A DNA stretch of 64,000 bases, from positions 1-64,000 of the IMG/VR virus record IMGVR_UViG_3300025133_000049; one strand, written 5' to 3'. This document shows positions 1,275-34,841 of the stretch, one piece after another. Made by a program: the position numbers and the translations under genes. How positions within the stretch are numbered: position 1 is the stretch's first letter; every line of letters begins with the position of its first letter. Origin of the DNA: a virus. Under the pieces are notes generated by a model. It saw nothing but the letters and a program-made list of their open reading frames with translations. It ran no database searches and had not been told where the DNA came from.

Positions 1275-4200
1275 CTATGTTATAGAATATAATATCTTAC
1301 CTGTAAATGGTTGTAATATTATAGAACTGGTATAAGGAGTTCCATCTAAACCATACCAGGTACCTGTTAAACTTACACTACTCACAACCTTAGTATTATT
1401 ATAAACACACTGATGATCTGTTACTGTTACAGCACTATCATCAGTTGAATTAGCATCTTGTGAGGATTTAGTTCTCCATTGCGCCAATGTATTGTCAGAT
1501 GAATCACCTGTAACATTTAATCTTACTACTTCTGTATCTCCTATATTCCAATAATTATTATTATCAGAAGTCAGCATAGAGTAATCAGCACCATCATTAT
1601 TTGTGATGTATAGGTTAGGGGTGGCATCATTTTTAAACATATCATTTTGTGATACCTCTATATTAGCGTATGTTTGACCTATTGTGTCATTCTTTAGATA
1701 AACAGAACCTACACCACTTAAATAGAATGAATTACCAGAGTAAACCATATTGATGTTATTATGTGAGTAAGCACCCCACTTACCTCCAATAGTTACGTTA
1801 TCTTGAACAGTTATATCATGAGCATCATCATCGTTGTAGATACCATGAAAATCTCTGTCAGATTCAATGTAGTCATAATGCTTAACAATATTATTAGTTA
1901 CAGTTCCTGCTGAACCATCTCCCAACTTATTGTAAACATAGATAGCTGCTCCATCTTGTAATGACAGACCACAGTTTTCTAAGTAGTTCATATCAACATC
2001 AAAGTCTTTAGAACCTGCACTGTAAATACCATTGAATCCACAATTCAATAATTTATTATATCTTACAACTGGCCTTAAAGAATGATAAGACATATATATT
2101 CCTGACCCACTACTTCCTGATGTTGGTAAGTAGTTTTTAACCAGCCATTGATTCTCAATAACATTATCTTCAACTAAATTATCATCAGCATTTACGAGTT
2201 GTATTGCTGTTCCAACATTATTCTTGAAATGATTATTCTTGTAAACAGAATCATCACCTGATAAATTATAAAGTGCATTTCCAATACAGCCCTCAAGATT
2301 ACAATTGCTCAATGTCCCAGCTGATGAATGGAACTGAACGCCATAATTAGCGTAATCCCTTATAATTAGATTATCTAAGGTGTTGGTAGAGTACTTCATA
2401 TAGAATCCAATATCACTATTGACACAAGCACTTATCCCTGTTGGAGAACTTGTTGAGTACATATATAACTTATTAGCTGTTGAATCATAAAACCACTCGT
2501 CTTGAGTAGTCAATAAATCATAAGCATTTTGAATCCAATACTCACCTCCAACAACAATATTATAAGTTGCGTTAATATCAGCCGTTAGAGTCACTTGACC
2601 TGTTGAATTATTAAATGCTGATATTGTTTGTTTAGACCTTGTATGAGGGTTCATAGTCATCCATACAGTTGCACCAACTAAATCACCAGAACCGATCAAA
2701 GCAGCATCTGTGAATTGAGTGCTTGTGTTTTGAACTGAATCAACATGATGATAAGTTAATGGATCATCTTCTCCAGTAGCATCACTCCAGCTTGGAGTTC
2801 TTGCGTTACTTACTGGTATGTTATTTTTATACACATTGTAAATGGTATTACCCCCGTCAGAACATTCCCAAATATTACCAGATGTATTAGTCCATCCTGT
2901 CATCCCAGTACTACCTTTTAATGTAGCTTGACCTGTTCCGTAACTTGTGAATGTAATACCGTTTCTTTGTTCAAAATTTATATTACCTTCAAATTCGTCA
3001 CCACCTTTGAAACCGACTATACTGTTATCTAAAGCTGGTCCTATTTCAGATTGTAATGAAGCAAGACTGTTCCATGCCGTCGCTTCTGTTAGTCCATCTG
3101 AGTTATCCCCAGATAATGCCACATAGAAATCAGGAATTACTGGTACTTCAACCACTTCATCATCATGTTTGACACTTCCAGCAGTTGTAAGATCAGCACG
3201 TTCATTTCCGTTATAATCATCGAGAACAGTTCCTATTTTACCAAACTGAATTGAAGCGAATGCTGCTTGTGGTTCATATGATGCGTTTAAATCTGGATTA
3301 ACATCTACATAAGTATCTCCGTAAGAAGCAAAGGAGTTATTCCAAAATACTGTGTTCTTCCATGTGCCATCTTCACCTGTTGTTAATCCACCTTCAACGA
3401 TATTATTTTTAAATATGTTTCCTGTAAATGTAGTTGTGACAGTTGAAATATCATCAACATTTAATAGTGTGTTATTATAGAAATCATTATCATTTGATGA
3501 CGTTCCAGAATCGGCAGTAACAAAGTTAAGCATTGTGTCAAACACATTATTTCTAACAGTATTATTAAATCCACCTTTAGCACCGTCTGCTGAAGCATCT
3601 TCACCAGCATTATGGAATCTTACTCCCATGTTACCATTCTTCACTAAGTTGCGTTCAAATGTATTATATGAAGCTCCATCTCTGAAGTGAGTACCTATAA
3701 CCTTTACAGATTCATTAATACCTTCCATTAAATTATTACGGCCCACACAGTATCTTGTTTGAGAATGTCTAAACTCAACACCACCACGGTTATCAATGAT
3801 ATGATTACCTTCAGCTAATGAATATTCTATTACTGATGTAGGCTCGTCGTCTGCATTTGCTTTGAAAGATACCCCATGACCATTATGTGCCATCGTTGGA
3901 AATCTTCTGATATAATTATCAAGCACTGCATTATTAGTTCCTACTTCACCACCATTGATTGATATGTAATAATCAGTTCCATTGTTAGCTGTTTGTAATG
4001 TTGTAACAGCCCAAGTATCTTCTACCAAGTTATTACCGTTTCTTAGCCTCACACATGATTGATAAGGGTCTTGAGTGTAACATCTAACCACTTTTGAGTT
4101 AGAACCAAGTATGGGATCAAAGTTGTAAATACTATGTGACCCTCCTTTTATATAACAGTTTTCAATCCTTGAACCAAAGGTTCTCGCTATTTCAATACCA

Positions 4201-6932
4201 TACCCTTGAGTAGCACCTTCAATTTGAATGTTCTTCAGTATGTAGTAATCTTTTTTATTTAGTTTAATGCCTTGACCATCAAACAACGGCATGATAGTAC
4301 TATCAAACGTCATTCCGTAGGTACGTGTTCTTAGAACGTCCTTAGCGTTATTGTTATAACCCTCAATCCATATAGGCTTAGTTGCTGAACCGTCAGCACC
4401 TCCTAATTCAAGGTAGCTTGTATAGGCACCATTAAGTAACATTACTTTAGTTCCTGCTGATACCCCATTTTGAATTTGTGTTATATCCCATGCGTTAGCT
4501 TCATCGGCACCACTCTTAGAACCGGATCCACTCATTGAAGCATATTTAGTTTCAGTAGGTGTTGGTTCTGATATATTGTTTGTAATACGTTGTACAAGAA
4601 AATCATTTACCACATCGTTATTACCACCATCTTTCCTTATAAGTATCTGAGAGAAATATGTCAAGTCTGCTGACAGTGTGAAATAATTACTGGTCGTATT
4701 GACTGAATTAATTGTCACGTTATCAATCACGAAATCAGTGTGACTTATCCCATCAACAGATCCTAAAGGAGTATCAAAGTATATTCTATCTTTGTTTGAA
4801 TCACCAAACCTAAAATTGGTCATCAAAGGCTTTAATCCAGAAACTGGCACTTCAATAGCTTCATTATCATGTTTAATACTACCTACAGTTGTAGGATTAG
4901 TACGCTCACTGCTATTATAGTCATATAAAGCATCGATAGAACGCTCTACATCTATATCAGTAAAAGTAGCTTGAGGTTGATATGATGCATCTAGTTGTGG
5001 ATCAATACCTGTTATTGCACCGGTACCTTCACCAGTAAACCCATTATAAAACAAACTGTTTGTGAATATGAATGATCCTTGTCCGGATCCTATTTTGTCA
5101 TTGCAATCATTTACAATACAGTTTATAAATTCGTTAGATGAATCAAAATAATCTGGTGTAGTTCCTGACTTATAAAAATCAGGAGCATTGTCAAATGTAC
5201 AGTTGATAAATTTATTCCTTTCGTTTGGCAAGGTCACACCTCCATCGACATTAATAAATGAAGTATCAGCGTTAGAAAATATTGTGTTTATCACAGTATT
5301 GTCAGAACCTCCATTTTGATTAAGCCCTCCATCCTCAGTTGAATCAAGAAAACGCACAGAGTACTCAGCGTTATTTACATGACTATTTTCAACACGATTA
5401 AATGAAGTACCATCACGAAACATTATCGCACGATTATTTACTCCTTTTGTGTCAGAATCAATAGTAATATTTCTACCTATATTATATTTAATTGTTGAAT
5501 GTCTGAACTCAAAACCACCATTACCACAATTATTAATTGAGCAATTCTCAACTAAACTGTGTTCTAAAATACCACCAGAACCCTTAAAACCAATACCATG
5601 ACCCGTATGTGTTGCATTTATATTCCTATCGGCTGTTGAATTTCTAACACATTGACTATGCCCATCAGTACCTCCGTATAACGATATGTAGTAATCCATT
5701 GATACTGCCCCACTTGTACAAGCGTAGAAATTGTCAATCAAGTGGTGTTTGTTATATAATCTAACTCCTGAATTTGTCATATCCTTAGCGTAGCAATCTA
5801 TTAGCCTTATGCTTGTGTGAGAGTTATTGTTGGCTCTAAACCCATAATCTCCTGTCCATGTATAACAATTTTCATAAACTTGATAGCTGTTCATAGCAAA
5901 ACCAACTTCCTGTGCCCCATTAGGAACATTTACTTGAAGGTTTTTAAAGATGACATATTGGTCGTTTGTAGCGACAAACTTTCCATTAATCAATGGCAAT
6001 TCATTTGCATCCGCGTTTAAGTCTGGTGCTCTTGTCGGCATATAACTTGAACCATCACCGTGAGTTGTTTTATATCCTATTATTTTAATTGGGTTGGTTA
6101 CTGTACCACTATTTGATAAAGTAAATGTACCTGAATAAGTTCCTTCCTTGATCCATATAGTATCACCAGCAACAGCAGAACTCATCGCTGTTGTTAGTTC
6201 AGTAGCATCTGTAGTATCCCACTCAGTTCCGGTTATCGATTCTTCATTGATCGTATTGTTGATATATTGTAATGTGAAATCATGACAACCTACTGAATTA
6301 TTTGCTTCTTTTCTAATTAATATATTATCCCAATAAGTTAAAGGAGCTGACAATGTAAAATATCCTCCAACATCACTTATTTTAGTAACACTTGAAACCG
6401 TTTTACCTTGAACTTTGAAATCACTTGCAACAATCCCATCCGGATAACCTAACGGGGTGTCAAAATTAATATAAGTTTTATCAGCATTAGTGATATTAAA
6501 ATTAGTCATGATTGGCTTCAGTATTTCATTAGAAATACCTGTAGTCTGTACTTGAAATGTTGGGTAAGTATAAACCTCTCCATTATCCTGTGCAGTAATC
6601 TGCACAACAACATCATTCAAAATACCGCTAGGGACACCAGTTAAAGTTCTAGTATGCCTAAATACACCAGGCTCTGGCTCACCAGCATTATAATCATCAT
6701 TAGAAGCAGCATTCAAAACACCATTAACCCAATAACTAATCTTACACTGCTTAGTCATATAACACCTCAACTTAAATGAAGTATCAGTAATCTCAGAAAC
6801 CTCATGAGAAGTGATTTCGAACAATACACCACTACTACCAAATACTATAGTATTACCTAAATAAATTCTATTTATCTGTGTAGAACCTAAGTAAAGTCTG
6901 TTAATTCCAGTGCTACCTAATTTTATTGCCAT
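1275..6932 (-). CDS. giant right-handed parallel beta-helix protein (1885 aa, three tandem pectate-lyase-like modules); putative tail spike/polysaccharide depolymerase
   Basis: N/G/D-rich beta-helix repeats and AVAGDTIWIKEGTY-type module starts. N-terminal MAIKLGSTGINRLYLGSTQINRIYLG virion-protein-like motif. True start is likely ATG 6932 (TAATG overlap with the upstream stop) rather than 6968. Confidence 0.8.
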   Translation of the reverse strand: MAIKLGSTGINRLYLGSTQINRIYLGNTIVFGSSGVLFEITSHEVSEITDTSFKLRCYMTKQCKISYWVNGVLNAASNDDYNAGEPEPGVFRHTRTLTGVPSGILNDVVVQITAQDNGEVYTYPTFQVQTTGISNEILKPIMTNFNITNADKTYINFDTPLGYPDGIVASDFKVQGKTVSSVTKISDVGGYFTLSAPLTYWDNILIRKEANNSVGCHDFTLQYINNTINEESITGTEWDTTDATELTTAMSSAVAGDTIWIKEGTYSGTFTLSNSGTVTNPIKIIGYKTTHGDGSSYMPTRAPDLNADANELPLINGKFVATNDQYVIFKNLQVNVPNGAQEVGFAMNSYQVYENCYTWTGDYGFRANNNSHTSIRLIDCYAKDMTNSGVRLYNKHHLIDNFYACTSGAVSMDYYISLYGGTDGHSQCVRNSTADRNINATHTGHGIGFKGSGGILEHSLVENCSINNCGNGGFEFRHSTIKYNIGRNITIDSDTKGVNNRAIMFRDGTSFNRVENSHVNNAEYSVRFLDSTEDGGLNQNGGSDNTVINTIFSNADTSFINVDGGVTLPNERNKFINCTFDNAPDFYKSGTTPDYFDSSNEFINCIVNDCNDKIGSGQGSFIFTNSLFYNGFTGEGTGAITGIDPQLDASYQPQATFTDIDVERSIDALYDYNSSERTNPTTVGSIKHDNEAIEVPVSGLKPLMTNFRFGDSNKDRIYFDTPLGSVDGISHTDFVIDNVTINSVNTTSNYFTLSADLTYFSQILIRKDGGNNDVVNDFLVQRITNNISEPTPTETKYASMSGSGSKSGADEANAWDITQIQNGVSAGTKVMLLNGAYTSYLELGGADGSATKPIWIEGYNNNAKDVLRTRTYGMTFDSTIMPLFDGQGIKLNKKDYYILKNIQIEGATQGYGIEIARTFGSRIENCYIKGGSHSIYNFDPILGSNSKVVRCYTQDPYQSCVRLRNGNNLVEDTWAVTTLQTANNGTDYYISINGGEVGTNNAVLDNYIRRFPTMAHNGHGVSFKANADDEPTSVIEYSLAEGNHIIDNRGGVEFRHSQTRYCVGRNNLMEGINESVKVIGTHFRDGASYNTFERNLVKNGNMGVRFHNAGEDASADGAKGGFNNTVRNNVFDTMLNFVTADSGTSSNDNDFYNNTLLNVDDISTVTTTFTGNIFKNNIVEGGLTTGEDGTWKNTVFWNNSFASYGDTYVDVNPDLNASYEPQAAFASIQFGKIGTVLDDYNGNERADLTTAGSVKHDDEVVEVPVIPDFYVALSGDNSDGLTEATAWNSLASLQSEIGPALDNSIVGFKGGDEFEGNINFEQRNGITFTSYGTGQATLKGSTGMTGWTNTSGNIWECSDGGNTIYNVYKNNIPVSNARTPSWSDATGEDDPLTYHHVDSVQNTSTQFTDAALIGSGDLVGATVWMTMNPHTRSKQTISAFNNSTGQVTLTADINATYNIVVGGEYWIQNAYDLLTTQDEWFYDSTANKLYMYSTSSPTGISACVNSDIGFYMKYSTNTLDNLIIRDYANYGVQFHSSAGTLSNCNLEGCIGNALYNLSGDDSVYKNNHFKNNVGTAIQLVNADDNLVEDNVIENQWLVKNYLPTSGSSGSGIYMSYHSLRPVVRYNKLLNCGFNGIYSAGSKDFDVDMNYLENCGLSLQDGAAIYVYNKLGDGSAGTVTNNIVKHYDYIESDRDFHGIYNDDDAHDITVQDNVTIGGKWGAYSHNNINMVYSGNSFYLSGVGSVYLKNDTIGQTYANIEVSQNDMFKNDATPNLYITNNDGADYSMLTSDNNNYWNIGDTEVVRLNVTGDSSDNTLAQWRTKSSQDANSTDDSAVTVTDHQCVYNNTKVVSSVSLTGTWYGLDGTPYTSSIILQPFTGKILYSIT

Positions 6933-10945: not shown

Positions 10946-11470
10946 TTATATTTTTATAATTCTGTGTTCTATAAACCAATCAGCATGTGGCGCGTCAATT
11001 AACTCAGCGTCATCAGCAACCCAGTCGCCTATTAAACCCTGTAACAGGTTTCTTACTTGAGATGTTCTATCTAAGGCCTGTAATATAGGACTAGATAAGG
11101 TAAACACCCTGGATTTCTTATTGAATGGTAATGTAGAACTTTTATAAATCTTTTGTTTTGCCTCTTTACTCATATGTGAATATTTTCCTTTCACAAATAG
11201 CCTAGAGTCCTTGATGTGCTCCGACGGTATAGTAAATATTACGTATAGCTGTTCTTTTAATTCTAGTTCAGATATATAATATTTATTATGCCGATACGTT
11301 GGAGTAAGCATCTTTCTTCTGAGATGTACATATAACTTTAACCCATCCTTAGAGACCAATGTAGTTTTAAACGGTCTCCCGAATGTTTTCTTATTGATCC
11401 CTAATAATGGGAGTAAGTAGTATGTACATAAATTATCTCCTTTCGGAATAAATAAAGACATATTAATCAT
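10946..11470 (-). CDS. conserved crAss-like hypothetical protein
   Basis: YLLPLL...FVKGKYSHMSKEAK pattern; co-directional and abutting its neighbours. Confidence 0.7.
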   Translation of the reverse strand: MINMSLFIPKGDNLCTYYLLPLLGINKKTFGRPFKTTLVSKDGLKLYVHLRRKMLTPTYRHNKYYISELELKEQLYVIFTIPSEHIKDSRLFVKGKYSHMSKEAKQKIYKSSTLPFNKKSRVFTLSSPILQALDRTSQVRNLLQGLIGDWVADDAELIDAPHADWFIEHRIIKI

Positions 11471-32395: not shown

Positions 32396-32475
32396 GATTG
32401 TGTTATTTAGTGTGATTTGTAAAACCAAGGCCAACACATTACATGTTGACCTGGTTTACACACACAAATTATACT

Positions 32476-32646
32476 CTAATCTAATTTATTTAAAATGTCA
32501 TTAATAAACCCACCCTGTTGGGTACGTCTATTTTTACGCTTTACTTGTCGTTCAATCTTGTGGTCTTGTATATCACGGTTAAACTTACTCTCTCTGTATA
32601 GATAGTGAAGTGTTGCTAATACAATTCCAATGGCTAAGGGTGTCAT
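32476..32646 (-). CDS. small membrane-anchored basic protein (56 aa), not in ORF track
   Basis: MTPLAIGIVLATLHYLYRESK...; A-rich leader. Confidence 0.5.
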   Translation of the reverse strand: MTPLAIGIVLATLHYLYRESKFNRDIQDHKIERQVKRKNRRTQQGGFINDILNKLD

Positions 32647-32684
32647 TTGTTTGAAATTTAATTAATAATTCAGTGTGTTATTCG

Positions 32685-33200
32685 ATAACCTAGGTTAATG
32701 TGTGAGCACAACAGTCGCAACTGCCTAGGGTTTACATATTTTAAAAACTCTTCAGCTTTCATGCAGGACTGCTCTGTGTTTGTTTATCTTCAAGCTGAAG
32801 AGTTAAAAGGTAAAGCCCACAACACGCCAAACAGTTGTGGTAGTACTTGGATAATGGTATTGCCTGCTCGATTACCATTGTTTAATACCTGCGTATACAT
32901 AGCAGTCCGAGGTATCCTATTTGAGTACTATTGAGTGATTTAGGCCTACTCAAGCTTTATAGTATTTTACAGTAATACTATACTGTGTGAGTTAGCTAGG
33001 ACTCTTAGAACCACATAATGGTCTTATTTGAATGCCTTTATATGCTTGGCCTAGCTATTAGTTCTCCAGGTGTTATTTAGTTGTCAATCTGCAGTGAGCT
33101 ATATATCATGAGGTGCTATGCTCTTGAGTCTATTACCTGAGAGTTGTGAGTGTTTGTATGATCTTAATTCATGGGCGATAACACTCTAACCCTTACGTGC
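32685..33200 (-). ncRNA. candidate large structured RNA (~515 nt) with kissing-loop
   Basis: At least eight stems of 6-13 bp and an 8-nt loop-loop complementarity; no - strand ORF. Strand assigned from context only. Confidence 0.55.
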
Positions 33201-33203
33201 AAT

Positions 33204-33446
33204 TTACATTGTAATGAATAAGTAGATAGCTCCTAACCATATTGCCAGTGTTATCAATATAACCAGTAGGCAACCAATGTTAGCGCCTACTACTCTATCT
33301 TGATACTCTTGTATTTCGTCTCTTTTATTTTGTAGTTCTTGATACTTATTAGTATGTTCTTGATATTTACTTTCTTGTTCTTGGTATTTATGTACTAGTT
33401 CTGGATCTTTACCAATAAGATCAATTAGTTTATCGTTATTTTTCAT
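33204..33446 (-). CDS. KYQE heptad-repeat coiled coil with C-terminal TM anchor
   Basis: KYQEQES/KYQEHTN/KYQELQN repeats; hydrophobic tail. Confidence 0.7.
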   Translation of the reverse strand: MKNNDKLIDLIGKDPELVHKYQEQESKYQEHTNKYQELQNKRDEIQEYQDRVVGANIGCLLVILITLAIWLGAIYLFITM

Positions 33447-34315: not shown

Positions 34316-34334
34316 TGTGTGTGATTTAATGTTA

Positions 34335-34815
34335 TATTAATAAGACAAGGTAGGCTAGCCTCTGTATACCTAAAACATCGGACGGACTAGCTCTATTAAA
34401 CCTTATCTTGTATTAATGTAATGCTAACTTACGTGCTAGTCAATTAGGCTTACGGTTCATTACCGGATTACAAGCATTACATTATGTACTCTGTTACTGT
34501 TATTAAATATTAATTAACCATAACCTCCGTAAAGGTATCATTCACTCTAAGTAGTATATTCCAAGTCATCATGTGACAAGTTAGATAGTTGGTTGGTGTA
34601 TTCCGCACCTACTCTTAGTGTTAATTAATGTACTTCTGTTATGTATGGTCAAAGTGTACCATGTATTGTTTATGTAATATAAATGAGGCTAAACTAGTGC
34701 TAGCGTACTATCACTAATATGCCTAATATGTGGGTGAGGTGACTGTCACCCTTCCTCCATCTCACTTATCGTACTAATGAGTTAGGCCTGTCGTACTAGG
34801 CTGTTTGGCCTAAAC
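34335..34815 (-). ncRNA. candidate structured leader/ncRNA (~480 nt) with repeated UAGUACG loops
   Basis: Consecutive multi-branched stems; G-U wobbles in the 34335-34418 stem favour the - strand; ORF-free. Confidence 0.55.
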
Positions 34816-34818
34816 AAT

Positions 34819-34836
34819 AAAGGGTCCGAAGACCCT
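34819..34836 (-). terminator. cUUCGg hairpin after the first early gene
   Basis: - strand AGGGTC-TTCG-GACCCT-TTATT. Confidence 0.7.
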
Positions 34837-34841
34837 AATTG

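Follow-up and report, generated by a model that had tools for sequence, protein, structure and literature searches.

What, if anything, is made from more than half a kilobase of gene-free DNA in a phage genome that is otherwise tightly packed with genes? This question is raised by an island in the window, that is, the 64,000-nt (64 kb) stretch of DNA analyzed here, which is taken from a 94.8-kb IMG/VR record (94,787 bp). A preliminary description of the island had noted an unusual ORF-free gap containing a series of stems and a potential kissing loop, and had proposed a large multi-domain or ribozyme-like RNA as its product. Judged by its sequence, the phage is a divergent marine member of the crAss-like group: three of its proteins (large terminase, portal and major head protein) fall into crAss-type PHROGs, its capsid protein is ~40% identical to those of known Crassvirales, and its best cultured TerL match (32% identity) is the Cellulophaga phage phi14:2. 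Few viruses are as abundant in gut and marine samples as the crAss-like phages, yet to our knowledge little is understood of what happens in the first minutes after they infect a cell.

Genomic setting and coding status of the island

Leftward replication genes start at ~27.9 kb and rightward structural genes at 35.7 kb, and the small ORFan genes between them form an array that also reads leftward, which is how the early block of a crAss-like phage is laid out. When the same codon-usage gene criterion is applied throughout, 93% of the window is coding, and its two biggest non-coding gaps, the island and a sister island (Table 1), are both located in the early block, confirming that the gap is an unusual one. 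Among 5.8 billion protein clusters, the 80-aa protein encoded next to the island has just one twin (99%), which is carried on a 1.9-kb contig. On the minus strand, the sister island opens with a GC-rich UUCG hairpin (34821-34836) and contains a 12-bp stem (34414-25/34473-84); as a whole it has a z of -1.97 on the minus strand, no Rfam match and no sequence in common with the first island. Elsewhere in the window, a 174-aa ORF of the replication block (10946-11470, minus strand) is alone among the long genes in not satisfying the codon-usage criterion, and may represent a recent acquisition or a gene of atypical composition.

Table 1. Coordinates of the island, its neighbors and the sequence elements discussed in the text (window numbering; z, folding energy relative to dinucleotide shuffles)
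Feature	Position	Strand	Remarks
Non-coding island	32647-33203	- (strand from context)	557 nt, the largest gap of the window, between the 80-aa and 56-aa leftward genes
Upstream early gene	33204-33446	-	80 aa, ORFan; codon score 0.24
Downstream early gene	32476-32646	-	56 aa; codon score 0.21
Canonical terminator-like hairpin 3' of the 56-aa gene	32428-32452	-	11 pairs and a U-rich tail
Stem of a CCTAGG palindrome pair around a small hairpin	32689-32729		z -0.97 (-), -2.4 (+), post hoc; weak
U-rich tract directly 3' of the 13-bp hairpin	32741-32747	-	UUUUU then AAAAU
13-bp perfect hairpin, 33-nt loop	32746-32758 / 32792-32804	-	Inverted repeat read from the sequence
Loop 8-mer of the 13-bp hairpin	32766-32773		Complementary to 32901-32908
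Partner 8-mer, proposed kissing loop	32901-32908		Complementary to 32766-32773
Right third of the island	33063-33203		z +0.24 (-), +0.63 (+); no structure beyond chance
Second non-coding island	34316-34841	-	Directly after the first early gene

Coding potential was assessed with a codon log-odds score trained on long genes, for which the null distribution has a mean of -0.10 and an sd of 0.18. Every tiling early gene scores 0.16-0.40 per codon, and the ORFs scored in the island (78 aa on the plus strand; 39, 36 and 30 aa on the minus strand) score -0.13 to +0.07 per codon, within the null range. With background codon usage in all of its internal ORFs, the island is truly non-coding, as had been proposed. 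A hidden gene, consisting either of two minus-strand micro-ORFs (39 aa, 32759-32878; 30 aa, 32670-32762) or of the plus-strand 78-aa ORF, is extremely improbable. The two micro-ORFs are joined by a shared ATGA overlap, the ATG of the 39-aa frame follows an A-rich TTAAACAA leader like those of the neighboring genes, and the neighboring early genes are themselves as small as 31-56 aa; however, scores of -0.13, -0.08 and -0.02 place the candidate frames inside the null and under all accepted early genes, and the 39-aa frame runs across the 13-bp hairpin described below. Reading TAG as Q and TGA as W opens no substantial frame in the island either. The plus-strand ORF, whose conservation and translation would have counted against the preliminary description, matches nothing except itself among 1.84 billion protein representatives, and this objection therefore fails.

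Folding of the island and its 13-bp hairpin

The complementary segments listed in the preliminary description are present in the sequence: the 13-bp repeat and the 8-nt complement lie where they had been placed (Table 1), and the other short stems recur in the predicted folds. However, structure beyond chance is confined to the 13-bp hairpin. A perfect stem of this length is reached in none of 300 dinucleotide shuffles of the island, every other perfect hairpin in the 114 tiles of the window is shorter, and its z is -3.4 on the minus strand and -2.9 on the plus strand, making it the only statistically supported structure in the island.

The idea of a large, globally folded multi-domain or ribozyme-like RNA, made from either strand and held by a kissing loop of 8 bp, has in its favor the MFE of the whole island on the plus strand, which has a z of -2.16 against dinucleotide shuffles, with 3 of 100 shuffles folding equally well; on the minus strand, the z is only -1.38. 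As an internal control, all 150-nt windows of the 64 kb were folded on both strands and their MFE was regressed on composition. By its mean residual, the island ranks 107th of 1269 on the plus strand and 201st of 1269 on the minus strand, corresponding to the 8th and 16th percentile, and many coding stretches fold better. The island thus has only a slight advantage over shuffles, and its folding does not stand out from that of the coding sequence of the genome itself. Several short hairpins in 32685-32918 have z of about -2 to -3.6, including the AATGGTA hairpin on the plus strand (-3.6), and the short hairpins of this part reach only about -1 to -2 on the minus strand; these segments, like the central domain (-1.8 on the minus and -0.8 on the plus strand), were cut at predicted domain boundaries chosen after the fact, which biases their z towards good scores. 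The CCTAGG stem is weak, and the right third of the island adds no structure (Table 1).

The kissing loop fares no better. The island contains 10 complementary 8-mer pairs, 6 of which are forced by the 13-bp stem, and the 4 that are left correspond to the chance level given by shuffles (3.5 +/- 2.5); in addition, the loop 8-mer is partly taken by competing local pairing in both MFE folds. The GC content of the island is slightly over that of its flanks (37.5%, compared with 33.5% in the early block and a window mean of 36%), which is consistent with a structured RNA, but no large-RNA or ribozyme family of Rfam matches at E<=10, and overall a large fold of this kind is very improbable. Of the preliminary interpretation, what survives is an unusual non-coding island that matches no known RNA family, and what finds no support is the multi-domain kissing-loop fold.

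On the minus strand, the 13-bp hairpin is followed by the tail TTTAAAATAT after two stem T's, and on the plus strand the tail is A-rich; because the U-run is on the minus strand, the terminator-like signal has a direction. Read in this direction, the hairpin looks like a terminator or a 3'-end stabilizer. It resembles intrinsic terminators in its perfect 13-bp stem followed by U5, on the minus strand and between two genes, but its loop, at 33 nt, is longer than the 3-8 nt usual for such terminators. A terminator scan of the region does not call it. Canonical terminator-like hairpins are present nearby at 32428-52 and 34821-36, and the former falls within the 150-nt window that is the most structured of all on the minus strand of the early block (residual z -4.0).

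The minus-strand order of island, hairpin-U5, 56-aa gene and strong terminator would also suit a cis-regulatory leader, in which the island would serve the 56-aa gene as a long 5' UTR, the hairpin-U5, which ends ~95 nt ahead of the start codon of that gene, would work by attenuation, and the terminator at 32428-32452 would close the unit. Such a leader is improbable: no anti-terminator alternative is evident, the 8-mer partner pairs with the loop and not with the stem, no riboswitch or leader family of Rfam matches at E<=10, and 460 nt would be extravagant for a 56-aa ORFan.

Known RNA families, homologues and the gaps of related phages

At gathering score, no Rfam family is found anywhere in the window, and at E<=10 the island and the whole early block give only meaningless eukaryotic snoRNA and miRNA matches. 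The earlier judgment that the island is not a tRNA, tmRNA, RNase P or intron is borne out by Rfam and ARAGORN, the latter of which detects no tRNA or tmRNA in the whole 94.8-kb genome; several relatives carry both in the early block. Neither tmRNA model (RF00023, RF04321) matches the genome of this phage or, at E<=10, the island, and the island has no T-arm (by a T-arm scan), acceptor stem or tag frame. Self-cleaving ribozymes (hammerhead including RAGATH-1, twister, pistol, hatchet and HDV-like) give no cmscan match at E<=10, and GOLLD, ROOL, HEARO, OLE and group I/II introns give no covariance-model match. The shared CUGAAGAG word sits within the 13-bp stem and, on inspection by eye, is not placed as a hammerhead core. 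At the DNA level, the absence of direct repeats or iterons from the island argues against a replication origin, the Bacteroidetes promoter motif has 0 matches in it, sigma-70-like promoter matches occur in it at shuffle level only, and it is complementary to other parts of the phage genome over no more than 14 nt, which is the chance level.

No homologue of the island is found by blastn in INPHARED, the exact hairpin pattern has no match in IMG/VR, and blastn and nhmmer searches against 17 IMG/VR, 16 JGI and 2 GTDB loci collected through TerL return chance matches only. Similarly, an all-against-all comparison of the gaps from different phages yields none related to the island, and the early regions of phi14:2 give no significant blastn match to it. 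TerL identity to the window phage does not exceed 65-71% in its nearest relatives from IMG/VR, JGI metagenomes and GTDB MAGs, and the relatives are either ~99.5% identical to each other or ~65-70%, with no intermediates. Synteny with the relatives is kept right of 35736, the early block to the left of this position is not alignable, and the 80-, 277-, 142- and 143-aa early proteins have no close relative in IMG/VR. Because no homologue is found even at 66-71% TerL identity, there is no sign of selection on the island sequence.

Gaps of the same kind are nevertheless present in related phages. L023/L004 and L022 (TerL 66-68% identical) each contain two ORF-free early-block gaps of 400-490 nt. 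Those of L023 lie ~1.3-2.8 kb upstream of a conserved 277-aa gene, similar to the window phage, and the first of them comes after the first early gene. Where this first gap ends downstream, just ahead of the next gene and on the early strand, L023 has a RAGATH-1 hammerhead (RF03152; 3974-4035, minus strand) that scores 56.2 bits compared with a gathering score of 56.3 (E 9e-8), which suggests that the early transcript is cut there and that such gaps may give processed RNAs. In addition, early-block gaps of the related uncultured crAss-like phages L006 (1681-1890, minus strand; 66.3 bits) and L013 (3555-3907, minus strand; 68.3 bits) hold permuted, two-piece tmRNAs (RF04321) on the early-gene strand; for that of L013, ARAGORN predicts a tag ending in RLAA. 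The early block of L006 also contains a 108-nt match to the tRNA model (2872-2979, minus strand; 45 bits) that is not called by ARAGORN and possibly represents a tRNA interrupted by an insertion or intron. Like the island, the gaps of L022, L008 and L010 are unclassified, as is the early region of phi14:2 other than the tmRNA-bearing one described below.

These relatives bear on a further explanation, in which the island would be a functionless, fast-evolving spacer, made for example of decayed ORFan genes or a decayed RNA gene, in a hypervariable early region, reached by read-through transcription only, with the hairpin as an ordinary gene-end stem-loop. Conservation of the island is detected nowhere, even the relatives show no conservation of the early block to the left of 35736, and folding is close to the genome background, all of which a spacer would account for. 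However, 93% of the genome is otherwise coding, relatives have the two large gaps at equivalent positions too, gaps of this kind hold real RNA genes there, and neither codon scores nor tblastx against the relatives detects a remnant of a coding frame, making a mere spacer somewhat unlikely.

Proposed role and comparison with known systems

The preferred reading, to which roughly even probability is given, is that the island is an untranslated segment of the early operon that is probably transcribed and possibly yields a stable ncRNA ending at the hairpin. Its transcription, strand, 3' end and any function are inferred, whereas its non-coding nature, its significant hairpin and the equivalence of its position to the gaps of relatives are shown by the analysis. 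The minus strand is probably the transcribed one, because the gene array is co-directional and the RNA genes in the gaps of relatives are all on the early strand. Most likely, the island would be co-transcribed with its neighbors on this strand, and may give an ncRNA of ~460 nt that extends from 33203 to ~32741, or merely a long UTR. The 13-bp hairpin and its U-run would set or protect the 3' end of this RNA ~95 nt before the next start codon, and the remaining RNA would be A/C-rich and only locally paired. Read in this way, the island would correspond to the RNA islands in the early blocks of relatives, which comprise tmRNAs, a hammerhead ribozyme and unclassified abundant lncRNAs.

A further-reaching proposal is that both islands of the window are orphans of a fast-evolving class of abundant early lncRNAs, made right after injection, similar to the unexplained g004-g005 RNA of phi14:2. 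Such RNAs would serve host takeover, perhaps by decoying RNA-binding or ribosome-rescue factors of the host, in the same niche that tmRNAs and ribozyme-processed RNAs occupy in relatives; this is offered tentatively and is considered unlikely. If early-block gaps regularly yield stable RNAs, the first transcripts of these phages would be partly devoted to RNA-level functions spanning tmRNAs, ribozyme-processed RNAs and unclassified lncRNAs. The island is one more unclassified example that shows little by itself; what makes it of value is the pattern seen across relatives, together with the probable contribution of a tmRNA to the lncRNA signal of phi14:2.

Among known systems, the permuted tmRNA gaps of L006 and L013 (RF04321) share the niche and strand of the island, each being an ORF-free gap among early genes, but the island lacks the tmRNA hallmarks given above. 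The RAGATH-1 gap of L023 (RF03152) likewise differs in holding a hammerhead, whereas the island has no match to a self-cleaving ribozyme at E<=10.

The closest parallel in a cultured phage is phi14:2, in which an injected virion RNA polymerase transcribes an early-gene array of this kind. Two long early intergenic regions of phi14:2, at the g004-g005 and g005-g006 junctions, are more strongly transcribed than most genes, in the direction of the early genes, and their RNAs persist late and were named lncRNAs of unknown function (Drobysheva et al., bioRxiv 10.1101/2020.03.07.982082). The phi14:2 genome (L019, NC_021806) contains an unannotated tmRNA at 4031-4500 on the plus strand, with an ARAGORN tag of GSSVQKLAMVA and a match to Rfam RF00023 (46 bits, E 2.6e-16). 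From the feature table of the record, we infer that the region bearing it is the g005-g006 junction; part of the lncRNA signal is thus probably the phage tmRNA. The phi14:2 regions and the island have no sequence similarity and are linked by position only; one phi14:2 region holds a recognizable tmRNA and the island holds none. Both phages, however, are crAss-like and have two to three ORF-free stretches of 500-700 nt in an array of small early genes, which in phi14:2 are co-directional with the genes and highly expressed.
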